Source: Patescibacteria group bacterium (GTDB lineage Bacteria; Patescibacteriota; Saccharimonadia; CAILAD01; BJGX01). Taken from it: a stretch of DNA of 64,000 bases. Location: positions 15,858-79,857 of the forward strand of contig JAPLVO010000010.1 of NCBI GenBank assembly GCA_026397045.1, in the 5' to 3' direction. Numbering within the stretch: the stretch's first letter is position 1; each line of letters starts with the position of its first letter. Position numbers and translations under genes: made by a program. Below the pieces are notes generated by a model, which saw only the letters and a list, made by a program, of their open reading frames with translations, searched no databases and was not told the origin of the DNA. Shown in pieces: positions 3,707 through 55,980 of this stretch.

Positions 3707-4858
3707 ATGACAACTAATAGCTCACCAAACTACCAACAACTCGCCCTAGAACTCCACAAAAAACTAAAAGGCAAAATCACTAGCCAAAGCAAGTTAGAGG
3801 TAAAAACTGAAGCTGATCTTAGCTTGGTCTACACGCCGGGGGTGAGTGCAGTATCGCAGCTATTGGCAGAGAAGCCAGAGTTGGCCCCAGATTACACCAT
3901 AAAACACAATACTGTAGCAGTTATTTCAGACGGCTCAGCAGTACTTGGCCTTGGTAACATCGGCCCACTTGGTGCATTGCCTGTGATGGAAGGCAAAGCT
4001 ATGCTTTTTTCTCAGCTAGCTGGGCTTAACTCTTTTCCTATAGTACTAGACACTCAAGACACAGATGAAATAGTACAAACCATTATAAACATCGCACCAG
4101 CTTTTTCTGCTATCAACCTAGAAGATATACAGGCGCCCAAATGTTTTGAGATTGAAAAACGCCTGCAAGAAGCTCTAAGTATTGCCGTTGTGCACGACGA
4201 CCAGCACGCTACCGCCATAGTAGTGTTAGCCGGGCTAATAAATGCTCTCGAGGTGGTAGGCAAAGCCGCCAATACAAGTAAGGTAGTGATATTGGGTGCT
4301 GGCGCGGCTGGTGTGGGCGTGGCGAGCTTGCTTGTAGAATACGGCTTTGAAGATATTGTTGTGGTAGACAGCAAAGGAATAATATCTAGCTCACGAAATG
4401 ATCTTAACAAAGAAAAACAAGTAATAGCTGGGCTAACCAACAAACATGACCAGCAGGGTGATCTAAAAGATGCACTAGAAAACAGCGATATATTTATTGG
4501 TCTTTCTAGTGGTGGCAAGTTGCCTTCAGAACTCATTAAAACTATGAATCCAAAAAGTATTATTTTTGCTCTAGCCAATCCAGAGCCAGAGATTTTGCCA
4601 GATTTGGCCCTAGAGGCTGGGGCTATGATTGTTGCGAGCGGAAGATCTGACTTTGCGAACCAAATAAATAATGTACTGGTTTTCCCAGGTCTTTTTAAGG
4701 GTCTTATAGACAATAATATAGTAAAGGTTTCTAGCAAGGTAAAGATTGAGGCCGCCGTGGCTTTAGCTGGCGTCGTAGAACAACCTACAGCGGATAATAT
4801 TATACCTTCTGTATTTGACCCATCAGTTGTTGGGGCTATTGCGAAAAGTATTCTATAG
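3707..4858 (+). CDS. NAD(P)-dependent malic enzyme, small form
   Basis: VYTPGV, VHDDQHATAIVVLAGLINAL (the malic enzyme HDDQ signature) and the GAGAAGVG Rossmann motif. A length of 383 aa matches small prokaryotic malic enzymes. Confidence 0.7.
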   Translation: MTTNSSPNYQQLALELHKKLKGKITSQSKLEVKTEADLSLVYTPGVSAVSQLLAEKPELAPDYTIKHNTVAVISDGSAVLGLGNIGPLGALPVMEGKAMLFSQLAGLNSFPIVLDTQDTDEIVQTIINIAPAFSAINLEDIQAPKCFEIEKRLQEALSIAVVHDDQHATAIVVLAGLINALEVVGKAANTSKVVILGAGAAGVGVASLLVEYGFEDIVVVDSKGIISSSRNDLNKEKQVIAGLTNKHDQQGDLKDALENSDIFIGLSSGGKLPSELIKTMNPKSIIFALANPEPEILPDLALEAGAMIVASGRSDFANQINNVLVFPGLFKGLIDNNIVKVSSKVKIEAAVALAGVVEQPTADNIIPSVFDPSVVGAIAKSIL

Positions 4859-8299: not shown

Positions 8300-9037
8300 A
8301 TGGTAAAAAAACAAAACACACGGGCAGCTTATAAGCCAGATCATCCCTACCTCAAAACGCTTAGCATACAAAAGAGCTCGGGCTTCGGCCGAAATAAGAT
8401 GCTGGCCATGAGGTCTGCGGTAATTATAGCTTTATTCTTGCTGGAAGGGGTGGTGATGTTAGCCGTGGTTGATTCGAAGATCAGCCATAGCCCTATAAAG
8501 AGTGATGTAGCGGTGGTCGCTAAATCCCCCAAAGCCAAGCCTAAGACCGAAGTAAAAGCAGTTTCTGAGCCAGCCCTGCCTGCCCCAGCCTTGGCTGTAT
8601 CCGATATGTCCTTAGTGATACCTAAGCTATTTATTAACGCTCCAATCGACCCTGTTGGGCTCAATACAAAAGGCGAAATGGCTACTTCACCCAGCCTTCA
8701 AAGGCTGGCTTGGTACAAGGATGGTGCAGTACCGGGCCAAATAGGCACTGCAGTTTTTGCAGGCCATTATGGCGGACCCAACGAAATAGGGGTGTTCAGA
8801 TCGCTAGATCAGCTCAAAAACGGGGATGTTTTAGAGGTCAAAAGCAAGGCCGGCAAAATACAAAAGTACTCGGTCTATAATATAGGTAAATACGCCTTGG
8901 CTGATGTGCCGCTGCAAGAGCTTTTTAATAAAAATGACGGCAAATATCTTAACCTTGTGACTTGCGTGGGGACTTGGAGTAATGGCACTAGTAGTTACGA
9001 CCAACGCTACATTGTTTTTTCTAGGCTAATAGAGTAG
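8300..9037 (+). CDS. Sortase family transpeptidase
   Basis: N-terminal TM anchor. Catalytic His context (TAVFAGHYG). TLxTC-type active site LNLVTCVG. A later conserved Arg. Confidence 0.6.
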   Translation: MVKKQNTRAAYKPDHPYLKTLSIQKSSGFGRNKMLAMRSAVIIALFLLEGVVMLAVVDSKISHSPIKSDVAVVAKSPKAKPKTEVKAVSEPALPAPALAVSDMSLVIPKLFINAPIDPVGLNTKGEMATSPSLQRLAWYKDGAVPGQIGTAVFAGHYGGPNEIGVFRSLDQLKNGDVLEVKSKAGKIQKYSVYNIGKYALADVPLQELFNKNDGKYLNLVTCVGTWSNGTSSYDQRYIVFSRLIE

Positions 9038-9108: not shown

Positions 9109-10857
9109 ATGAAAATCAACATGACTCGCCGTACAAATATACTATCCTTAGCGGTATTAAGCCTCCTTATACCAGGAATGTTCTTGCTCGCGAAGCCAGC
9201 TAGCGCGCAGTATAGTGGCACTAATGGCCGAATAGTATTTTTGCAGGAGCGATCAGCTGGATTACCAAATACCGTGGAGGTCTGGTCTGCTAACCCAGAT
9301 GGTAGCGCTTTGGTTCAGCTCACTAGCGATGATGAGGCCAATGGTTACCCAGGGGTCTCTAGTGATGGCACAAAGATAATTTATACAAGCTATGACGCTA
9401 CTACTTCTGGTACTTATAGAATTCGGATGATGAATATTGACGGCTCTGGCAAGGTAATATTGCAAGGTACTCAGTCGGCCCCCAATGATTATTATGGGGA
9501 GCCTAAGTTTAGCAAGGACGGCTCTAAGATTGTTTTTGTAGCAGCAGCAGTTACTGGTTTGGCTGGCAATGAAGTGTTTACCGCCAATGCCACAGTAGGT
9601 GCAACCAAAACCCAGCAAACCTCTGGCAGTTCTAGCTCCAATACATCTATGTACCCGATCTTTAATAACGCCGCAACCAATATCTACTACTCCGCCTCAA
9701 ATTCTGGTACTCCTGGCCAAACCAACATATGGAGAGTTGCAGTAACTACCTCTACAATCAATTCCCCATTCCTTTTAACGCAGATAAACTTTGGTGGTGT
9801 TCAGATATCAGCGGCACCAGATTTAAGCCCGGATAATACTAAGCTCATATTCCATAAGAATACTTTTGCCGACCCCGGCATTTATCGTCTATTTTATTTA
9901 AGCAATCCAGAAACTATATCCACTACACAAAATTCAGCGACGCTTGTCACTTTTTCTACACCCCTAGGTGCAACAGACTCTGTTGCAAATCCTATCTTTT
10001 CGCCTGACGGAAATCGAATAACCTACACCCTTTCAGATAGTACAGGATCAGGGTACCAAGTTCAGTTTGCCGATTACTCTTCAGCGAATGTAGTAACTAA
10101 TCGTAGAGCGTTGATTTTAGGCAATGACCTTACTGACCCGAACACTATATTATCATACTGGGGTGCAATGCCTGCAATTCTGAATTGGCGTGGTGATTAT
10201 TCGGCCACACTGCTTTATGCGCCCAATGATGTTGTGTTTTATAGTGGTTCTTCCTATGTTTGTGTCACTGCAAGCTGTTCTGGTAGTACACCATCTAGCA
10301 CATCTACCGATTGGGATCTTATGGCTTCGCAAGGGACCCCTGGAACCAATGGAACCAATGGAACCAATGGAACCAATGGAACCAATGGAACCAATGGAAC
10401 CAATGGAACCAATGGAACCAGCTTTACATGGCTGGGGACTTTTAGCCCCACGACAATCTATACTGCCAGGCAAACGGTATTTTATAATGGGTCTTCATAT
10501 GTTTGCGACCCTGTTTCTCCGGCAACTACATGCCCAGCGGGCACCACACCTACTACTGCAAACGGCTGGGACCTATTGGCTCAACAGGGTATTGCTGGCC
10601 CAACTGGCGTAGCTGGCCCAACTGGCCCACAGGGTGCGACGGGTGCAACAGGCGCAACAGGTTCTGCTGGTTCTGCTGGTTCGGGCAGTTCCGCATCTGG
10701 TTCATCTACCCCCGGCGCTCCCAACGCATCTGTGGCTACATTGGTCAGAACTAGCTCCCCGGTGGCGTTAGCAGGAGTCGCAGTAGCTATGGTTATTGGT
10801 CTAGCTGGGTTCTGGATTAGTATCGAGATCAAATCCTCTAGGTTGGCTAAGCGATAA
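9109..10857 (+). CDS. Large secreted or cell-surface protein. It combines a TolB-like beta-propeller region, two CBM5/12-like chitin-binding modules, a (GTN)8 repeat, a collagen-like G-X-Y repeat and a C-terminal TM anchor.
   Basis: Signal peptide MKINMTRRTNILSLAVLSLLIPGMFLLAKPASA. Propeller-like repeats (DGSKIVFV, SPDGNRITYT). Two W..Y....V.Y.G..Y.C......W modules (NWRGDYSATLLYAPNDVVFYSGSSYVCV...WDL and the second FTWLGTFSPTTIYTARQTVFYNGSSYVCD...WDL). PGTNGTNGTN...GTS encoded by an exact 9-bp DNA repeat. GIAGPTGVAGPTGPQGATGATGATGSAGSAGS. C-terminal hydrophobic segment plus the basic tail KSSRLAKR. Confidence 0.6.
   Translation: MKINMTRRTNILSLAVLSLLIPGMFLLAKPASAQYSGTNGRIVFLQERSAGLPNTVEVWSANPDGSALVQLTSDDEANGYPGVSSDGTKIIYTSYDATTSGTYRIRMMNIDGSGKVILQGTQSAPNDYYGEPKFSKDGSKIVFVAAAVTGLAGNEVFTANATVGATKTQQTSGSSSSNTSMYPIFNNAATNIYYSASNSGTPGQTNIWRVAVTTSTINSPFLLTQINFGGVQISAAPDLSPDNTKLIFHKNTFADPGIYRLFYLSNPETISTTQNSATLVTFSTPLGATDSVANPIFSPDGNRITYTLSDSTGSGYQVQFADYSSANVVTNRRALILGNDLTDPNTILSYWGAMPAILNWRGDYSATLLYAPNDVVFYSGSSYVCVTASCSGSTPSSTSTDWDLMASQGTPGTNGTNGTNGTNGTNGTNGTNGTNGTSFTWLGTFSPTTIYTARQTVFYNGSSYVCDPVSPATTCPAGTTPTTANGWDLLAQQGIAGPTGVAGPTGPQGATGATGATGSAGSAGSGSSASGSSTPGAPNASVATLVRTSSPVALAGVAVAMVIGLAGFWISIEIKSSRLAKR
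10342..10413 (+). repeat. Perfect tandem repeat (GGAACCAAT)x8 inside the coding sequence, followed by one degenerate unit
   Basis: Read directly from the sequence. The 9-bp unit keeps the reading frame, and each unit encodes G-T-N. Confidence 0.9.
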
Positions 10858-13300: not shown

Positions 13301-13374
13301 TGGCTGGAGGAGGATTTGAACCTCCGACCTCAGGCTTATGAGTCCCGCGCTCTAACCAACTGAGCTACCCAGCC
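13301..13374 (-). tRNA. tRNA with CAT anticodon. Position 1-72 is fully paired, so this is elongator Met or Ile2. CCA is encoded at 13298-13300.
   Basis: Reverse complement: ggctgggtagctcagttggttagagcgcgggactCATaagcctgaggtcggaggttcaaatcctcctccagcc-a-cca. Confidence 0.75.
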
Positions 13375-13513
13375 TAACTACCATTGATGAAAAAATCCTA
13401 AAAAAGACTGTTTTCAAGCTGTTATTATTACATATTGACCCTGTAATTTCAAGCTAGTAGGGGGCATATCGCCAAAGTAAAAACCCAACGCATAGGTTGG
13501 GTTTTTACTTTGG

Positions 13514-13587
13514 TAGCGGGGGCAGGATTTGAACCTGCGACCTCCAGGTTATGAGCCTGACGAGCTACCAGACTGCTCTACCCCGCG
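13514..13587 (-). tRNA. tRNA with CAT anticodon and a C1:U72 mismatch, making it a candidate initiator tRNA. CCA is encoded at 13511-13513.
   Basis: Reverse complement: cgcggggtagagcagtctggtagctcgtcaggctCATaacctggaggtcgcaggttcaaatcctgccccgct-a-cca. An unpaired first acceptor base pair is typical of bacterial initiator tRNA. Confidence 0.7.
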
Positions 13588-25769: not shown

Positions 25770-25878
25770 TTGACTAGAAGGTGTTTTGATCTGTATTATT
25801 GCTAGGTTAATTAATAAACTATATTTTATACTTATTTTGAACTAGAATTATAGATGAGTATTAAAAAGAAAGGCCAAG

Positions 25879-26784
25879 ATGAAGATAATAGTATTAGCCC
25901 GGCCTAATCGCAAAAACGGAGCCGAACGACTACTAGAAGCTGCTACCAAGCGAGGCCATGATGCCCGAATAGTGAATTACACTAAGTGCTACTGTAATGT
26001 CGTAAAGAGCAAGCCACAGGTATATTACGAAGGCAAGCCGCTAGAGGGAATTGATGCAATCATACCTAGAATTTCGATAGCCAGCCAGGCATATGGTAGT
26101 GCAATAATTAGGCAGTTTGAGATGATGAATGTATTCTCTACGACAGGTTCACTTGCCTTCATTAGAACCAGAGATAAATTACGAAGCATGCAACTTTTAG
26201 CAAGGCACGATATCGATATCCCCAAGACAGTTGTTGCCAATAACACAGATGCGCTCGACGAGCTTATTGCGATGGTTGGCGGCGCACCCTTAATTGTCAA
26301 AGTTGCCAGGGGAAGCCAAGGAATGGGGGTTATGCTAGCTGAAACTCGCAGTGCAGCCAAAGCGATAATCCAGGCGTTTTATTCCCAGAATGTAAATATT
26401 TTGGTTCAAGAATTCATTAAAGAATCTAATGGTAGCGATGTCAGAGCTTTTGTTGTCGATGGCAAAATAGTCGCAGCCATGAAGCGACAGGGCCCAGAGG
26501 GCGAGTTTAGATCTAACATACATTTGGGCGGCGAGGGTGTACCTATAAAACTAACTAGGGCAGAGAGGCTCATATCCTTAGGCGCTGCCAAGGCTATGAA
26601 TCTTAACATCGCCGGCGTGGATCTTTTACAGTCAGAGCGAGGCCCCTTGGTAATGGAGGTCAACGCATTTCCGATGTTTGGCGAAATAGAATCAGTTACT
26701 AGCCAGGATATTGCAGGGGAGATAATTGAGCATGTCGAAGACCATGTGCCTCGCAAAAGGAAGAGAGATAGAGTAGGGGCTTAA
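25879..26784 (+). CDS. rimK: RimK-type ATP-grasp alpha-L-glutamate ligase (ribosomal protein S6 modification)
   Basis: Collinear with E. coli RimK across its full length. RDKLRSMQLLARHDIDIPKT, MVGGAPLIVKVARGSQGMGVMLAETR, ILVQEFIKE, EFRSNIHLGG and GPLVMEVNAFP all match the RimK family, not merely a generic ATP-grasp. Confidence 0.8.
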   Translation: MKIIVLARPNRKNGAERLLEAATKRGHDARIVNYTKCYCNVVKSKPQVYYEGKPLEGIDAIIPRISIASQAYGSAIIRQFEMMNVFSTTGSLAFIRTRDKLRSMQLLARHDIDIPKTVVANNTDALDELIAMVGGAPLIVKVARGSQGMGVMLAETRSAAKAIIQAFYSQNVNILVQEFIKESNGSDVRAFVVDGKIVAAMKRQGPEGEFRSNIHLGGEGVPIKLTRAERLISLGAAKAMNLNIAGVDLLQSERGPLVMEVNAFPMFGEIESVTSQDIAGEIIEHVEDHVPRKRKRDRVGA

Positions 26785-26854
26785 ACGCTGCGGCTGGGCC
26801 AATTAACTATTCAATACTCCACCCTACAACGGCTAATATAGTTAGGTTAAAAAA

Positions 26855-27451
26855 TTGAAGTTACTACTTATAAATAATAATACATACTACAAGAATAGGC
26901 TTAAAGACCTACTCATTAAGCATGAGCTGGATATCATAGATTATGATGAATTGGCTGGGTTTGACTTACAAAAATACGATATAGTAGTGTTGTCTGGCGG
27001 CGGGATAAAGGTTGAGGGTAAAAAGCGATCTCTCAAGAGATTTAGCCACCTTTACGAAGATCAAATTGAGCTGGTCAGAGAATCCAATAAGCCAGTTGTC
27101 GGGATTTGTTTAGGATGCCAGATCATTGGCCACAGTTATGGGGCAGAGCTGCATAGGTTTTTTACCACTCGGCGCAAGGGTTTATTCCCTATAGTAGCCA
27201 TTAAGAAAAATAAGCTCATGGCTGGCAAAGATGAAGCTATGGTTTTCCAATCTAATCGCTGGATGATTACTGAATTACCCGAGGAACTAATCTGTATAGC
27301 CGCCTCCAACGAAGGCGCTGAAATAATCAAACACAAAACAAAACCCATCTATGGCGTCCAGTTCCACCCTGAGAGAGAGAAGCCAGGTGGCGAGGGGCGT
27401 AAAATATTTAATAGAATTCTCAAACAAATTTACGATGAAGAGGTTTCTTGA
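26855..27451 (+). CDS. Stand-alone class I glutamine amidotransferase-like protein (GATase1; TrpG/PabA/GuaA-small-subunit-like)
   Basis: Catalytic Cys in GICLGCQI and His-Glu in GVQFHPE. About 198 aa with no synthase domain. Confidence 0.6.
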   Translation: MKLLLINNNTYYKNRLKDLLIKHELDIIDYDELAGFDLQKYDIVVLSGGGIKVEGKKRSLKRFSHLYEDQIELVRESNKPVVGICLGCQIIGHSYGAELHRFFTTRRKGLFPIVAIKKNKLMAGKDEAMVFQSNRWMITELPEELICIAASNEGAEIIKHKTKPIYGVQFHPEREKPGGEGRKIFNRILKQIYDEEVS

Positions 27452-28145
27452 ATTCAGCGCTTAGATGGTAGAAGTTATAAATTATCTTCTCAGCAACTTC
27501 AGGGTTATACCTCGGAGGCATATCTATGTTCGTGAACCATCTGAATGGCACTCGGTGTTTTAGCCAGCTATTGACCTTAAGTGTGCCCCGATGCGCAGTA
27601 TATTCCGGGTGGAATTGCACGCCAAATATTGGCTTATATTTATGCTCATAAGCCTGGATATTTTTACCATTAGATAGAGCAGTTAATCTAAGTTCTGGGG
27701 GTAGATGAACTACATTTGAAGTGTGGCTCTCGAAAGCATAGAACTTTTTCGGGATATTCCTGAACAGTCGAGATGGGCTAGTCTGGTATATTTTAGTCCA
27801 CCCAATCTCGGGGTTTTCATAGTGTTCGATGCTAGTAAAATCTGAGAGAGCCGCGACAATAGCTTGAAAGCCAAAGCATATACCTAGGATTGGTATGCCT
27901 TCTCTTTCGGCCTTTTGTATCAATGGCTTTAGCCTAGAGTATATTATGCTACTTTCGTCGACGCTGCTGCCCGAACCAGTCAGGATTATATGACTATAGC
28001 GGTCTAGCTGCTGAGGTAGTGGCCCTTCAATACTATGCAGTACGCTGGTCTTGGCACTGAAGTGCCTATGGAATTGACTGCACTTAATACACTTGTGTTT
28101 AAAGGAGTTATCAACAATGAGGATTTTTTTATTCATACATAACAA
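27420..28145 (-). CDS. Second stand-alone class I glutamine amidotransferase-like protein. It is convergent with the previous gene, and their 3' ends overlap.
   Basis: GICFGFQAIV and GVQFHPE motifs. 241 aa. Its 3' end overlaps the previous gene by 32 nt. Confidence 0.6.
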   Translation of the reverse strand: MLCMNKKILIVDNSFKHKCIKCSQFHRHFSAKTSVLHSIEGPLPQQLDRYSHIILTGSGSSVDESSIIYSRLKPLIQKAEREGIPILGICFGFQAIVAALSDFTSIEHYENPEIGWTKIYQTSPSRLFRNIPKKFYAFESHTSNVVHLPPELRLTALSNGKNIQAYEHKYKPIFGVQFHPEYTAHRGTLKVNSWLKHRVPFRWFTNIDMPPRYNPEVAEKIIYNFYHLSAEFKKPLHRKFV

Positions 28146-28271: not shown

Positions 28272-28823
28272 ATGATTTTTGCAAGTTATGTAGATTTGAG
28301 CTTAGACAGTGCATATCGACGCCTAGGCATCCAAGAGCCAAGCTTTGGAAACCCAAGGATTAAGATTTTAAACAACTGTAAAATTGATCGCTGGAAGTTT
28401 GTTTATTCTAGGCCGCCAGGCCTCGAGCAACAGCAGGCCACAGCCGACATCAAACCAAGCCTTGAGGACTCACTAATGGTTATGGTTATGGATATTCCCA
28501 GCACGCTTATCGATAGGCTCTGCCTTGCTAATGGGGTTTACTCTGGCTTGCGACGCTTCGATAGCGTTTATACCGAGAGTGAAGATATAGCAGTATTGCG
28601 TTTTTGCAAGCCAATCGCCTTAAAGCCATCTGTTACCTATGTAGCTAACCTGGTGGCAAATCTTTTAGAGGCTGGGATAACCCCGAGCTATGTAGAGACC
28701 ATTATTTCTAATGCTGGTTTCGATAAATCCGACATAGAAACAATGTTTTCCGAAACCAACTACAAAGATACTGCCGAGTCTGGTAGTTTTATGCGCGAAT
28801 GGGCGCTCAAAAATCTGTGCTAA
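28272..28823 (+). CDS. Hypothetical cytoplasmic protein
   Basis: ORF with no recognisable motif. A GGAGG sequence precedes the ATG at 28272; the ORF track starts earlier, at 28203. Confidence 0.3.
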   Translation: MIFASYVDLSLDSAYRRLGIQEPSFGNPRIKILNNCKIDRWKFVYSRPPGLEQQQATADIKPSLEDSLMVMVMDIPSTLIDRLCLANGVYSGLRRFDSVYTESEDIAVLRFCKPIALKPSVTYVANLVANLLEAGITPSYVETIISNAGFDKSDIETMFSETNYKDTAESGSFMREWALKNLC

Positions 28824-45512: not shown

Positions 45513-45587
45513 GGCGAGTGATGGGGCTTGAACCCACGACCTCCTGGACCACAACCAGGCGCTCTAACCAACTGAGCTACACCCGCC
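45513..45587 (-). tRNA. tRNA-His (anticodon GTG) with an encoded G at position -1. CCA is encoded at 45510-45512.
   Basis: Reverse complement: g-gcgggtgtagctcagttggttagagcgcctggttGTGgtccaggaggtcgtgggttcaagccccatcactcgc-c-cca. G-1 pairs with C73, a His identity element. Confidence 0.8.
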
Positions 45588-45623
45588 ACGGCGTCAGACA
45601 ACTACTTTGAAAATACTTTATGG

Positions 45624-45697
<74 letters not shown>

Positions 45698-45759
45698 TTA
45701 CATAGTTATTATACCCCAGATATAAATTAATCCCGGCAAGCGGGATAAATTTTTCATGG

Positions 45760-45831
45760 AGCGGGTAGCGGGGATCAAACCCGCATCTCCTGCTTGGAAG
45801 GCAGGAATAATAATCATTATACGATACCCGC
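45760..45831 (-). tRNA. tRNA-Gly (anticodon TCC). CCA is encoded at 45757-45759.
   Basis: Reverse complement: gcgggtatcgtataatgattattattcctgcctTCCaagcaggagatgcgggtttgatccccgctacccgc-t-cca. It has a U73 discriminator and a short D arm that closely resemble E. coli tRNA-Gly(UCC). Confidence 0.8.
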
Positions 45832-46055
45832 AAACAGAAGTGACGCACGAATGCGTCACTTACTGGATCAAATTGATTATTTCTACCAATTTGGGATATG
45901 AAAAGAAATAAAAGGTACAAGGACTAAAAATAAGCGCCTATAGTTAAAAAATTATATACTATTTATGAACTTACCGCAATATTACAGTTAGTAAGCAGAT
46001 CATTATTGTTAAAATTGTGTCATAATGGTATCAATAAATAATAACGAAAGGAAGT

Positions 46056-46445
46056 ATGAATAAATTAAAAAAATTAGCGGCAGTTATCACGGCACTAGCG
46101 AGCACTTTGCCAGTTTCTGCATTTGCTCAGGACGGATATGTATCTAGCTCATTATCGGATAATGCCCAACAAAATTCTGTTGGAGCAACAGGGGCGTTTT
46201 TATTATTCTTTATTGTACTATATGGAATATTTATTATTATTGGGATGGTACTATTCGTATTCTGGATTTTTATGTTGGTAGATGTATTCAAAAGAACCAA
46301 CTGGAAACAGGAAAACGATAAAACACTCTGGATTTTATTAGTTATATTGCTTTACCCAATAGGCTCAATTTTATATTTCTTCTTAGTAAAGAGAAAACTC
46401 GATAATAACAAAAACACCCTTACCGCCCCTCCAAGTGCGACCTAA
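46056..46445 (+). CDS. Small hypothetical membrane protein with a signal peptide
   Basis: 129-aa ORF sitting between two divergent tRNA clusters. Signal peptide plus 2 TM helices. Confidence 0.3.
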   Translation: MNKLKKLAAVITALASTLPVSAFAQDGYVSSSLSDNAQQNSVGATGAFLLFFIVLYGIFIIIGMVLFVFWIFMLVDVFKRTNWKQENDKTLWILLVILLYPIGSILYFFLVKRKLDNNKNTLTAPPSAT

Positions 46446-46566
46446 GTATATTAAAATACGAAAATATTTCAGCTACCAATTGCTAGCCGCTACAAAGCAC
46501 GGCCCCATACGGAATAGTTTTACTGGTAGATTGTTTCGCTTCTATATGCTAAAATAACCAAGATTA

Positions 46567-46640
46567 GCGCCCTTAGCTCAGCTGGATAGAGCGTCTGACT
46601 TCGGATCAGAAGGCCGGGGGTTCGAATCCCTCAGGGCGCA
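46567..46640 (+). tRNA. tRNA-Arg (anticodon TCG). CCA is encoded at 46641-46643.
   Basis: gcgcccttagctcagctggatagagcgtctgactTCGgatcagaaggccgggggttcgaatccctcagggcgc-a-cca. Stem tctga/tcaga, loop ctTCGga. Confidence 0.7.
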
Positions 46641-46673
46641 CCATAAAGTATTTTCAAAGTAGTTGTCTGACGA

Positions 46674-46747
46674 GGGCCAGTAGCTCAGTTGGTTAGAGCG
46701 GCTGCCTCTTAAGCAGCATGTCGCGGGTTCGAATCCCGCCTGGCCCT
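46674..46747 (+). tRNA. tRNA-Lys (anticodon CTT). CCA is encoded at 46748-46750.
   Basis: gggccagtagctcagttggttagagcggctgcctCTTaagcagcatgtcgcgggttcgaatcccgcctggccc-t-cca. Confidence 0.8.
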
Positions 46748-46849
46748 CCATAGTGTTTGCCTTCCTTTGCGATGGAACAAACCAGATTCTATATTCTGCT
46801 TGTTGCATCGAGGGGAAGACAAGTTAAGCTTACGAAAGCGATTTGGCAA

Positions 46850-46923
46850 CGGGGTGTGGCGCAGTTGGCTAGCGCGCGTCGTTTGGGACGATGAGGTCGA
46901 AGGTTCGAGTCCTTTCACCCCGA
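46850..46923 (+). tRNA. tRNA-Pro (anticodon TGG). CCA is encoded at 46924-46926.
   Basis: cggggtgtggcgcagttggctagcgcgcgtcgttTGGgacgatgaggtcgaaggttcgagtcctttcaccccg-a-cca. G37 fits Pro. Confidence 0.75.
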
Positions 46924-48058: not shown

Positions 48059-48164
48059 AGACTATATTTTATCAAACAACTAGGCTTATTAGTAGTTATT
48101 TATACCTACTAGCTGTTGGGTGCTGCTTTCACTTAACAATCTTATGCTATATAATATTAAAAAA

Positions 48165-48764
48165 ATGCAGTACACAATTAATTCAGCTCCTTCTCATAGA
48201 GTAAGAACTAGAAGAAACCGATGGGCGTTCGCAGTTATTGGTTTATTTCTGCTCATTTTGGGAGTTTATTTATCCATTCTATTAATTACGCCTAAAATCC
48301 AGAAGAAGTCACCTCAGCAGATCCAGAAGTCTGCTAGCGAACTACCGGTTTACGACAAGAATACTATATTTATACCGTCAGTAGGTGTCCAGTCCGAAAT
48401 AGGCCAGGGTGGGCCGGGTGTTTTAGATAAGGGCTTAGCCTGGAATCGACTCCCCGAGCAGGGTAACCCAATTAAAGGCGGCAATATGATAATTACTGGC
48501 CATAGTTTTGTATGGGGCTACGACCCATCGCAGGTTACAAAAAGATCCATTTTCTATGACCTTAAAAATGCCAAAGTTGGCGGTGATGTACTAATAAATT
48601 GGTATGGCAAACAGTATAAATATACTATTACTAAAGTAAAGACAGTTAAACCCAGCTCTGTTGAAATTGAAAATCAAAGTAGTGAACCAATGCTCACTAT
48701 CTACACCTGCACCTTGGGAGGGTCGGCCGATGGCAGGGTAGTAGTAATCGCTAAGCCCAGTTAG
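48165..48764 (+). CDS. Sortase family transpeptidase (second copy)
   Basis: N-terminal TM anchor. His in ITGHSFVW. TLxTC-type active site LTIYTCTLGG. The ORF may begin at 48120. Confidence 0.55.
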   Translation: MQYTINSAPSHRVRTRRNRWAFAVIGLFLLILGVYLSILLITPKIQKKSPQQIQKSASELPVYDKNTIFIPSVGVQSEIGQGGPGVLDKGLAWNRLPEQGNPIKGGNMIITGHSFVWGYDPSQVTKRSIFYDLKNAKVGGDVLINWYGKQYKYTITKVKTVKPSSVEIENQSSEPMLTIYTCTLGGSADGRVVVIAKPS

Positions 48765-49033: not shown

Positions 49034-49504
49034 CTACCACCCCTCTGTCTGATAAACCGCCGAGACAAGTACGCTGGTTGGCCGACCTTTGCAGGTCGTA
49101 CCCTTTATAGACATTTGTATCTCACTCCATTTATCATTTGGTCTGCTCGCAGTCATGTGATTAAGAGAGTTAGATATCATATCCTCAAGGCCTTTTTGTG
49201 TATTGCTATGATGCTCTACAAAGAGGCCTTTTTTAGTGCTAGCTTCTTGAACCCAGCCTATGCCAACCCACATCTCTTGGCCGGCGGTTGAGCTGCGGAC
49301 TTCAGATATTACAACATAAAGCTTGCTACCGAAATCTTTTGGCGTAAAAGAAGGCTTTTCGAATACGATATTGCTACCAGGCGGAATTACGGAGCTTAGA
49401 CAGATCAGGTTCTGATCTCCAATGCCAGCACTCATTAGGGCTGAATCAAAGGCCGACAGTTCAGTGGGGCCAGTGCCACTGCCTTTTGTGATTTGTATAT
49501 TCAT
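49034..49504 (-). CDS. pdaD: Pyruvoyl-dependent arginine decarboxylase (PdaD/AaxB family)
   Basis: GSGTGPTELSAFDSALMSAGIGDQNLICLSSVIPPGSNIV aligns with the archaeal PdaD region [29 protein letters not shown]. That alignment includes the Ser-Ser self-cleavage site, which generates the pyruvoyl group. About 156 aa, matching the family size. Confidence 0.7.
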   Translation of the reverse strand: MNIQITKGSGTGPTELSAFDSALMSAGIGDQNLICLSSVIPPGSNIVFEKPSFTPKDFGSKLYVVISEVRSSTAGQEMWVGIGWVQEASTKKGLFVEHHSNTQKGLEDMISNSLNHMTASRPNDKWSEIQMSIKGTTCKGRPTSVLVSAVYQTEGW

Positions 49505-54147: not shown

Positions 54148-55980
54148 CTAAAGCGCGCTAGCAGGCCCATTATTATTTGCACTTGCTGTATTGTCTTCGA
54201 ATTCATCTCTGGATCTATTCAGTGGATTTAGTTCATTTACAGCTTCCGGAAATCCCGATACCAATGTGCTTGAAGGAGTGGCCGGTATTGTAATCGGCTG
54301 GCTCGCAGGGGCTGTATTGGGCAATACCACTGGATGCTCGGCCGATTGGGTGCTAGATGTTATCGCAGGAGCTATGACAGGAGACGGCATTGCGGGTGGT
54401 ATTGAAGTAGGTATGATGTCGCTATCATTACTTTGCCCGATAACGGGTGCTTTTGTCTCTGATGGCTGAGGAGGAATTAGCGGGGGCTTGGGGGCCTTGG
54501 CAATGGGCGTAGGAGGCTCTAAATTAGAGATTGGCGGTGTTACTCTTGGGGGCTGAGGGGGAAAATTATTTGTATTAGCAAATTTATTATCTCTTGTCGC
54601 AGAGGGGGTTACCGGCCTGGGTGGAGTCATGGCTTTTGGTGGTGCCTGGATGTCGCCATCGATACTTTTTAGGGGCTTTGGCCTAGGCCCATCAATGGTG
54701 TTAAGAACAGCACTTTGGGTCGGCATATTTGCTGATTCTTTCGAAGGCTGAGTGGAATCTAGTGAATATTGGATTTCTAGCAAGCGATTATATTTTGCTA
54801 TTCGTTCACCTCTGACAGGAGCCCCAACTTTTATTCCATAGGCGCCTACTCCATAGGCTAAATCCACAATAAAATCATCATTACTTTCACCACTTCTGTG
54901 GCTAATTATGACCTCATTGCCTACCTCTCGAGCCATATCGATAGCAGCAAACATTTCCGATATGCTTCCAACTTGGTCGGGCTTGATAATTATCCCGTCA
55001 AAGACCTTTTCTTTTGCGAAATCATTAATCTTGCGTGAGTCTGTAACTGTAAAATCGTCTGATATTATCTGGAAGGGCTTACTTTCTGAGGGGATGCTCT
55101 TGAGTAGCTCGAGACCTTCAAGATCGGTTTCAGCAAATGGGTCTTCTAGCGAGAAAAGATCAAACTTTTGATCCCATGCCTGGTAGGCTGCAAGTAAATC
55201 GCTAGCGTGTGCGTTGTTTCCCTCAAAAACATAATTTTTACCGTTGTAAAAGCTGTTGGCAGCAATATCTAGGGCTATTTCAAATTTCGAATCCATTTTT
55301 TCTCTGAGGTTGGCAATTGCTTCTAGGACTACTTCTGTTCTAACACCAACTGGCGCGATGGCACCCTCGTCGCCTACTAGCTGGGCCGCTGGGCCATACA
55401 AACTAACCATTATTGTCTTGATGGTTTGATAAACCTGAACTATCATTTCTATAGATTCTATTGGGTTGGTTGATTTAGGGACAATCATAAACTCCTGAAT
55501 ATCCAGTCCGGGGGCGTGTTTACCACCACTAACTAAATTAGCGTATATTCTAGGAAACTTAGGAGTGGTTTTTCGATTTTCAGCAATGTATTGCCAGAGG
55601 GGTTTTTTACTGAGCTTGGCACTTAGCTTAAAGTAGGCACCTGAGAGCGCCAAAATTGTATTTGCGCCCAAGTTCTGCTTATTATCTGTCCCGTCTAGAG
55701 CGATTACTAGGCTATCGAAGTCATCTTGATGTTTTAGCGGATACCCAATAAACTTGGGTGAAACAATTTTATTGATTAAATCCACGCACGAGGCTACACT
55801 CTTTCCGCCGTAGCTATCGCCGTTATCAGTCTTTTTTTCTGCTTCACCTATACCCAAGCTAGAGCCTGCGGGCACAATAAACCATGATGAAGTACCATTT
55901 TCAGCTACCATCCTGACTTTTAGCGTCGGCTCACCGTTAGAATTTAGTACCTGCGAGGGTACAATGCTTTTAATTCCCAT
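54148..55980 (-). CDS. eno: Enolase carrying a C-terminal Pro/Ser/Thr-rich extension of about 185 aa
   Basis: The enolase core is roughly residues 1-425: SHRSGESNDDFIVDLAYGVGAYGIKVGAPVRGERIAKYNRLLEIQ, and IKPDQVGSISEMFAAIDMA. The low-complexity tail (PPKAMTPPRPVTPS...PPQPPRVTPP...) is encoded by 54148-54705. Confidence 0.85.
   Translation of the reverse strand: MGIKSIVPSQVLNSNGEPTLKVRMVAENGTSSWFIVPAGSSLGIGEAEKKTDNGDSYGGKSVASCVDLINKIVSPKFIGYPLKHQDDFDSLVIALDGTDNKQNLGANTILALSGAYFKLSAKLSKKPLWQYIAENRKTTPKFPRIYANLVSGGKHAPGLDIQEFMIVPKSTNPIESIEMIVQVYQTIKTIMVSLYGPAAQLVGDEGAIAPVGVRTEVVLEAIANLREKMDSKFEIALDIAANSFYNGKNYVFEGNNAHASDLLAAYQAWDQKFDLFSLEDPFAETDLEGLELLKSIPSESKPFQIISDDFTVTDSRKINDFAKEKVFDGIIIKPDQVGSISEMFAAIDMAREVGNEVIISHRSGESNDDFIVDLAYGVGAYGIKVGAPVRGERIAKYNRLLEIQYSLDSTQPSKESANMPTQSAVLNTIDGPRPKPLKSIDGDIQAPPKAMTPPRPVTPSATRDNKFANTNNFPPQPPRVTPPISNLEPPTPIAKAPKPPLIPPQPSETKAPVIGQSNDSDIIPTSIPPAMPSPVIAPAITSSTQSAEHPVVLPNTAPASQPITIPATPSSTLVSGFPEAVNELNPLNRSRDEFEDNTASANNNGPASAL

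Follow-up and report, generated by a model that had tools for sequence, protein, structure and literature searches.

The glutamylation of ribosomal protein S6 by RimK is among the few known dynamic modifications of the ribosome, and in Pseudomonas the RimK/RimB writer/eraser pair reshapes the proteome. RimK of Escherichia coli is a stand-alone S6 glutamate ligase, which makes poly-alpha-glutamate in vitro. Its gene occurs alone, without accessory genes (PMC10092738). The Pseudomonas RimABK system consists of the ligase RimK, the protease RimB, and the cyclic di-GMP (c-di-GMP) phosphodiesterase RimA, with RimK under c-di-GMP control; RimB, a protease of the retropepsin-like kind, shortens glutamate tails and also stimulates RimK (PMC7343187, PMC11957791). 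We analyzed a 64-kb stretch (64,000 nt) of contig JAPLVO010000010.1 from a member of the Saccharimonadia (hereafter, the window), in which rimK is followed by two genes for stand-alone proteins with the fold of class-I glutamine amidotransferases (GATases) and C26 peptidases, here called GATase A and GATase B (Table 1). The locus looks like a lineage-specific version of the RimK system, with GATase-fold hydrolases where RimB usually stands. All three open reading frames (ORFs) lay where a first-pass annotation of this DNA had reported them, and every sizeable ORF of the window was annotated via Pfam or precomputed matches.

Among described systems, the module would, by analogy, work most like RimABK. 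As in Pseudomonas, RimK (52% identity, 316 bits) belongs to an operon-like unit with genes for accessory hydrolases, and a GGDEF gene beside the GATase in sister loci echoes control by c-di-GMP. However, the window has neither RimB (PF05618/NF052261) nor RimA, and the accessory proteins are Cys-His-Glu proteins of the GATase1/C26 type. Because RimB and RimA are absent, the locus does not qualify as a RimABK system. The window RimK is also collinear with E. coli RimK (5zct/4iwx) over residues 1-291 (290 bits), but, unlike the E. coli gene, it has conserved GATase neighbors, and its loops carry the changes S7A, S14G, S68A, and NSSPG to NAFPM.

The arrangement further recalls cyanophycin synthetase and cyanophycinase, in which an ATP-grasp poly-amino-acid synthetase stands beside a hydrolase with a class-I GATase-like fold, and related gene islands hold a cyanophycin-synthetase-like ATP-grasp protein and an S51 peptidase. 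The window proteins differ in having a Cys nucleophile and the GATase/C26 S1 pocket rather than the Ser of S51, and the polymer would be glutamate rather than Asp-Arg. With the C26 peptidases (plant GGP1, PuuD, and folate gamma-glutamyl hydrolase), they share the fold, the triad, the oxyanion architecture, and above-threshold Pfam scores. Known C26 members, however, cut gamma-glutamyl bonds, and we know of no C26 enzyme that acts on alpha-linked RimK products or is linked to rimK. The last comparison is with two-component amidotransferases (GuaA-A/GuaA-B, TrpG/TrpE, PabA/PabB, and CarA/CarB), with which GATase A shares a compact structure (template-modeling score, TM, 0.77-0.80) and a place beside an ATP-using enzyme. 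It nevertheless scores far below the family cut-offs, and its neighbor is RimK, not a known ammonia-using synthase. Full-text literature searches and papers on RimK context, which did not cover a 2009 survey of ATP-grasp neighborhoods, yielded no description of a RimK-GATase pairing; that survey, by Iyer et al. (2009), reportedly treats neighborhoods with peptidases and may mention such pairings.

The predicted product of the rimK ORF is a full-length, genuine RimK-type ligase that matches characterized RimKs at orthologue grade. It matched Pfam RimK (PF08443, 200.6 bits) and the pre-ATP-grasp domain Rimk_N (PF18030, 105.1 bits), and aligned without gaps to Pseudomonas RimK (7qys/7qyr) over residues 1-289, with 52% identity over these 289 residues. 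These matches, together with the collinear alignment to the E. coli enzyme, bear out the first-pass view of a true RimK. The protein also passed the NCBIfam subfamily model rimK_fam (238.9 bits against a cut-off of 143.4). It fell 6 bits under the equivalog cut-off for S6-glutamate ligases (NF007764; 324.6 vs 331 bits), and RimK of the related locus L105, which is 66% identical to it, lay above that cut-off (349 bits). Viral contigs gave no match to the RimK query.

In P. aeruginosa RimK, poly-alpha-glutamate is contacted by S7, R8, S14, R64, S68, R189, and N262 (PMC10092738). The window RimK keeps R8, R64, R189, and N262, and the three serines are replaced as given above. Two RimK subtypes were distinguished in Saccharibacteria: a RimB-associated subtype with Pseudomonas-like SKGPGN and NSSPG loops (for example, the L011/L102-type) and a GATase-associated subtype with ARPNRKN and NAFPM loops, to which the window protein belongs (type 2). 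The sites at which the subtypes differ are contact positions for poly-Glu in the P. aeruginosa structure. A C-terminal KDRVGA tail was considered as a GATase-specific docking motif and rejected, as it is present in both subtypes.

The two GATases are distant paralogs (30% identity over 144 residues) with their catalytic triads intact. Both exceeded the thresholds for PF00117 (22.8 bits) and Peptidase_C26 (PF07722, 20.5 bits), with 82.4 and 34.3 bits for GATase A and 87.3 and 45.2 bits for GATase B; the Peptidase_C26 matches cover only the C-terminal half of the model (~96-219), and PF00117 scores higher. GATase A carries the motifs GICLGCQ and QFHPE, and its triad, C85-H171-E173, is invariant across 50 homologs. 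GATase B carries GICFGFQ and QFHPE, with C87 and H176 invariant and E178 present in at least 90% of sequences. The first-pass description of two stand-alone, triad-bearing GATase1/C26 paralogs in convergent genes with overlapping 3′ ends thus held, the overlap being 32 nt (27420-27451). Gene calls show it on six further contigs of this organism as well, and a relative with 60% identity has an overlap of 17 nt. GATase B itself was present as described, but its start moves from the TTG at 28145 to the ATG at 28136 (238 aa), according to gene calls on identical contigs; the N-termini of homologs (MxKKILIVDN) also support this start.

AlphaFold2 (AF2) models of GATase A and GATase B reached predicted local distance difference test (pLDDT) values of 95.2 and 89.7, respectively. 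The best structural matches of GATase A were the glutaminase subunits Ta0944, Mj GuaA-A, TrpG, and PabA (TM 0.77-0.80), with Arabidopsis gamma-glutamyl peptidase 1 (GGP1) ranking lower, so that the modeled protein resembles a compact amidotransferase glutaminase subunit. For GATase B, the top match was GGP1 (TM 0.77-0.78), roughly tied with Ta0944 GuaA-A. The basic isoelectric points (pI) of the GATases (9.0 and 9.65) were considered as a sign of poly-Glu binding and set aside as uninformative, because the median pI of the window proteins is 8.9.

We examined the linkage between rimK and the GATases in related loci, which are referred to by L numbers. DnaK of the window is identical to an NCBI protein of a Patescibacteria group bacterium, and relatives of RimK and GATase A carry the labels Candidatus Saccharibacteria or Saccharimonadales. 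In L007/L008 (60% GATase identity), rimK is followed by GATase A, which faces a convergent GATase B, and in L009 (51% identity) rimK is followed by GATase A alone. A sister group of GATases, clade II (GICMGFE motif; 32-36% identity to GATase A), was used for a metagenome scan that returned 64 loci, whose RimK, RimB, and GATase content was assessed by a tblastn census. RimK lay at most 4.2 kb downstream of the clade II GATase in all 18 loci whose downstream sequence measured 4.5 kb or more; genes there usually ran in the order dnaJ-(GGDEF)-GATase-[variable genes]-rimB-rimK-DUF192. L101, L105, and L110 had no RimB, and in these an extra GATase ORF begins 7-25 nt past the rimK stop. The post-rimK GATase of L105/L110 groups with GATase A of the window (39% identity), and the accompanying RimK is of the window subtype (66% identity). 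Across the window, L007/L008, L009, L105/L110, and L101, the distance from the rimK stop to the GATase start is 7-70 nt. Two more distant homologs of GATase A were found, one in an uninformative context and one not linked to rimK. A profile search of genome contigs with a broad GATase A alignment gave no close relative among the matches listed; these were generic GuaA/TrpG-type genes, with motifs common to all class-I GATases. Judged by this gene order, the linkage between rimK and GATase A is real rather than due to chance, and it has been kept through rearrangements in the relatives with 60%, 51%, and ~39% identity. The synteny check proposed with the first-pass annotation thus came out in favor of its reading.

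The census also revealed an alternation with RimB. Among 31 RimK loci, 28 had RimB upstream and no GATase after rimK, 3 showed the reverse, and none had both or neither. In the window, tblastn with Saccharibacteria RimB was negative, no protein matched PF05618, and neither DUF192 nor a second ATP-grasp protein was found within the 64 kb. Cultivated Southlakia epibionticum has rimB-rimK and no adjacent GATase (PMC10633639). Overall, the genomic evidence favors a functional tie between RimK and the GATases.

We tentatively read the GATases as hydrolases coupled to RimK that would free glutamate from RimK-made conjugates. RimK would be the writer, adding L-glutamate at the expense of ATP to a C-terminal carboxylate, either that of ribosomal protein S6 or that of a growing free poly-alpha-glutamate chain. 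The rimK stop is 70 nt from the GATase A start, and a consensus scan alone detected no terminator-like site between the two genes. The promoter-like site upstream of rimK is a candidate start of the rimK-GATase A transcript; we infer that the two genes are probably co-transcribed, with the convergent GATase B facing them. GATase A and GATase B would then be glutamyl-amide hydrolases working with RimK, not ammonia donors for nucleotide, folate, or tryptophan synthesis. They might trim tails or recycle oligo-glutamate, and so would take on, in this lineage, the eraser/recycler role that falls to RimB elsewhere. What we infer here is thus the coupling, physical or metabolic, the substrate, and the direction of the effect. 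In favor of this reading, both GATases exceed the Peptidase_C26 gathering score, and GATase B has its best fold match in an enzyme proven to be a gamma-glutamyl peptidase.

Several observations weigh against the GATases being erasers of RimK products. The usual targets of this fold are gamma-glutamyl or glutamine amides. Class-I GATases have in common with C26 peptidases an S1 site for Glu or Gln that is gamma-linked and has free alpha groups, where the Gln of GxCxGxQ binds the alpha-carboxylate (PMC12958103). Both window GATases keep this glutamine (GICLGCQ and GICFGFQ), whereas clade II has Glu at that position. The links that RimK forms are of the alpha type, so direct trimming of its tails would need an unprecedented specificity. 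For this reason, the writer-and-eraser module proposed in the first-pass annotation is only partly supported: the genuine RimK, the two intact GATases, and their conserved linkage stand, but the usual specificity of the fold does not fit. In its model, GATase A looks like a minimal glutaminase subunit that lacks the open leaving-group cleft of a peptidase. No RimK-GATase fusion appeared among the top 120 matches of a concatenated RimK+GATase A query, a search of limited depth in which all matches were RimK-only proteins of 281-312 aa. Searches of the window and all 180 loci with S6 queries from E. coli, B. subtilis, and Thermus gave no rpsF, ssb, or rpsR match. Both rimK and rimB were dispensable in transposon sequencing (Tn-seq) of Southlakia (PMC10633639). 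Synteny in these genomes extends over the entire dnaK-to-ruvC region, so that part of the conserved linkage is by descent. Nor do the 18 of 18 loci and the 28/3 split represent independent events in the phylogeny, because the loci share kinship. Moreover, the sister GATase clade occurs together with RimB, and the GATases are therefore not simply RimB substitutes.

Given the compact, glutaminase-like shape of GATase A, a role as glutaminase partner of RimK is a serious rival, roughly as convincing as that of an eraser, although we consider it somewhat unlikely in itself. GATase A, and perhaps GATase B, would hydrolyze free glutamine, as a small subunit or as a metabolic feeder. It could supply Glu for polymerization in an organism unable to make amino acids itself, couple glutamylation to the glutamine supply, or deliver ammonia to the RimK acyl-phosphate in the manner of CarA/CarB, amidating or capping the chain end. 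The genes of the two-component glutaminase subunits that GATase A best matches normally lie beside their synthase, and in several lineages rimK is the neighbor, at a distance of 7-70 nt. Both the triad and the S1 glutamine that free Gln requires are kept, the product of a glutaminase is a substrate of RimK, and carbamoyl-phosphate synthetase provides a precedent for pairing an ATP-grasp enzyme with a class-I GATase. On the other hand, the window RimK is 52% identical to enzymes that require just Glu and ATP, we know of no ammonia-using RimK reaction, and the search described above found no fusion protein among the top 120 matches. A feeder role hardly accounts for the two or three different GATases of an island, and mutual exclusion with the protease RimB points to a RimB-like rather than a supply role. 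The more specific idea that GATase A docks on RimK as the second subunit of a glutamine-dependent enzyme like CarA/CarB, which would pass on nascent Glu for polymerization or channel ammonia to amidate or cap S6 or poly-Glu, is quite improbable in our estimate. The first-pass alternative of orphan amidotransferase subunits (a split GuaA subunit A, or PabA/TrpG, with synthase partners elsewhere in the genome) draws on the best NCBIfam and PDB sequence matches, which were archaeal GMP synthase subunit A, and on a partner search that covered the 64-kb window. The scores of GATases A and B were, however, far below all equivalog cut-offs, at 78.9/81.9 bits vs 198 (NF001975) and 69/84.5 bits vs 172 (TIGR00888) for GMP synthase subunit A, and 38.8 and 39.6 bits vs 121 for TrpG/PabA (TIGR00566). 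Within the 64 kb, there was no GMP-synthase ATP-PPase, chorismate-binding, CPSase-L, or CTP-synthase domain, and no GMP_synt_C or PP-loop partner other than TilS, in agreement with the earlier observation of no neighboring synthase domain. GMP synthase is also not among the annotated genes of a complete cultivated Saccharibacterium. Given these scores, the lack of a partner in 64 kb, and that genome, together with the conserved rimK linkage, orphan subunits are unlikely.

GATase B is tied to rimK less firmly than GATase A, and it could instead be a GGP1/PuuD-like enzyme. One or both GATases, and GATase B especially, would then scavenge gamma-glutamyl compounds independently of RimK, as general gamma-glutamyl peptidases or glutaminases that free Glu from host-derived compounds and lie beside rimK through inherited gene order; we regard this as rather doubtful. 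GATase B belongs to a separate clade of stand-alone ~235-aa proteins (TM1158, SMU.1228c, and GGP1-like), and its linkage to rimK was seen in the window clade only. Its homologs at 32-34% identity sit in unrelated contexts, a GATase B-like protein of Southlakia lies beside Hsp20, far from rimK, and L009 has rimK-GATase A without GATase B. In L008, an AIG2_2 protein comes after GATase B, as would suit gamma-glutamyl metabolism. Such scavenging does not explain why the adjacency of GATase A and rimK outlasts changes of gene order and of RimK subtype, nor why the convergent, overlapping A/B pair is itself conserved at 60% identity. The 183-aa window protein downstream was considered as gamma-glutamylcyclotransferase-like, owing to a weak C-terminal BLAST likeness to the L008 AIG2_2 protein (E = 0.044); it has no Pfam match and was not counted in the module. 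The first-pass annotation had also suggested a produce-modify-export cassette, in which RimK and the GATases make or modify a glutamylated peptide that is exported by the ABC-2 transporter. The uncharacterized protein, small protein, and ABC-2 exporter are indeed found downstream as described, close to the module in the window and in same-species contigs. However, L007/L008 and L009, relatives at 60% and 51% identity that keep rimK and a GATase, lack the genes for the 183-aa, 126-aa, and ABC-2 proteins, and in the window these genes are encoded on the opposite strand or separated from the module by a divergent promoter region. A search of the window found no precursor-like or LysW-like carrier ORF with an acidic C-terminus near the module. 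Because the unknown and ABC-2 genes are not conserved with the module, we consider this cassette highly improbable.

The coordinates of the module and of related features are collected in Table 1. In the window, the genes around the module run hrcA-grpE-dnaK-dnaJ, followed by a CvpA-like gene, then rimK, GATase A, GATase B, two unknowns, the ABC-2 exporter, comEC, yebC, and ruvCAB. The two unknowns, the 183-aa protein (28272-28823) and the 126-aa protein, have no Pfam match, and they are followed by an ABC-2 permease and an ABC ATPase.

Table 1. Positions of the rimK module in the window and of associated features in related loci (L numbers)
Feature	Position	Strand	Remarks
Promoter-like site, TTGACT-18 nt-TATTAT	25770..25799	+	10/12 consensus matches; between CvpA-like gene and rimK
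RimK	25879..26784	+	301 aa
GATase A	26855..27451	+	198 aa; TTG start; class-I glutamine-amidotransferase / peptidase C26 fold; stand-alone
GATase B	27420..28136	-	~238 aa; GATase1/C26; stand-alone; C-terminal helical extension
AIG2_2 protein (gamma-glutamylcyclotransferase-like)	L008:9463-10017		41.5 bits; follows GATase B in 60%-identity relative
Variable island genes	L111:6616-8007; L118:4049-5383 (also L107, L152); L140:8888-10153; L105:7601-8656		
Peptidase S51, cyanophycinase/PepE-like	L012:6556-7341	-	weak NCBIfam matches
GGDEF (diguanylate cyclase)	L011:7290-7799; L012:5137-5805; L101:5116-5625; L135:15-395		divergent, beside clade II GATase
Conserved 312-344-aa protein	L105:6605-7543; L101:6609-7562; L116:6603-7637; L128:6647-7657		directly after clade II GATase

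In the related islands, every variable gene found from the clade II GATase to rimB-rimK codes for an amino-acid ligase or a peptidase. Among them are a second RimK-like ATP-grasp protein, a RimB-RimK hybrid, a MATCAP/QEGLA-like carboxypeptidase, a Mur-ligase-like protein, and a cyanophycin-synthetase-like ATP-grasp protein (209 bits). In L012, the S51 peptidase gene converges on and overlaps the 3′ end of the GATase gene, which is the layout of GATase B in the window, and after it two ATP-grasp ligases take the place of RimK. Given this gene content, the region looks like a hotspot at which amino acids are joined without the ribosome and released again, and the window carries the minimal version of it. 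The GGDEF neighbors of clade II GATases, by analogy with Pseudomonas, may hint at a c-di-GMP link in Saccharibacteria. The conserved protein that follows the clade II GATase had no Pfam, NCBIfam, or PDB-sequence match in its L105 copy and no Pfam match in its L116 copy.

Saccharibacteria thus keep RimK despite their minimal genomes, surrounded by a changing set of ligases and peptidases, and in one lineage the RimB slot is occupied by amidotransferase-fold cysteine hydrolases. Should RimK products be the substrates of the GATases, this would add an unexpected class of substrates to the C26 fold and provide a second, independent eraser of protein glutamylation. If they feed or regulate RimK instead, a ribosome modification would be tied to the glutamine supply in a host-dependent epibiont, an organism that relies on its host for amino acids. 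A joint RimK-GATase A enzyme, if real, would be a new way to write or terminate the tail of a ribosomal protein in response to the host nitrogen supply. Genetic tools exist for cultivated Saccharibacteria.

The window has further features of its own. An enolase ORF (54148-55980, minus strand) encodes 610 aa, of which the enolase domains end at residue ~410, leaving a C-terminal extension of ~200 aa that has no Pfam match. Apart from a pyruvoyl-dependent arginine decarboxylase (49034-49504, minus strand) and a malic enzyme (3707-4858, plus strand), the metabolism encoded in the window is minimal and centered on glycolysis, with phosphoglycerate kinase (PGK), enolase, pyruvate kinase (PK), triosephosphate isomerase (TIM), and a D-2-hydroxyacid dehydrogenase at 52.9-61.1 kb. 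Seven of the 11 tRNA genes of the window lie on both strands within 1.4 kb (45513-46923), and a separate pair is located at 13301-13587. Finally, there are two sortase genes, one of them beside the gene for a 582-aa protein with PD40, CBM_5_12, and collagen-repeat matches (window 8300-9037, 9109-10857, and 48120-48764). From its domain matches and position, the 582-aa protein may be a sortase-anchored surface protein of the epibiont.

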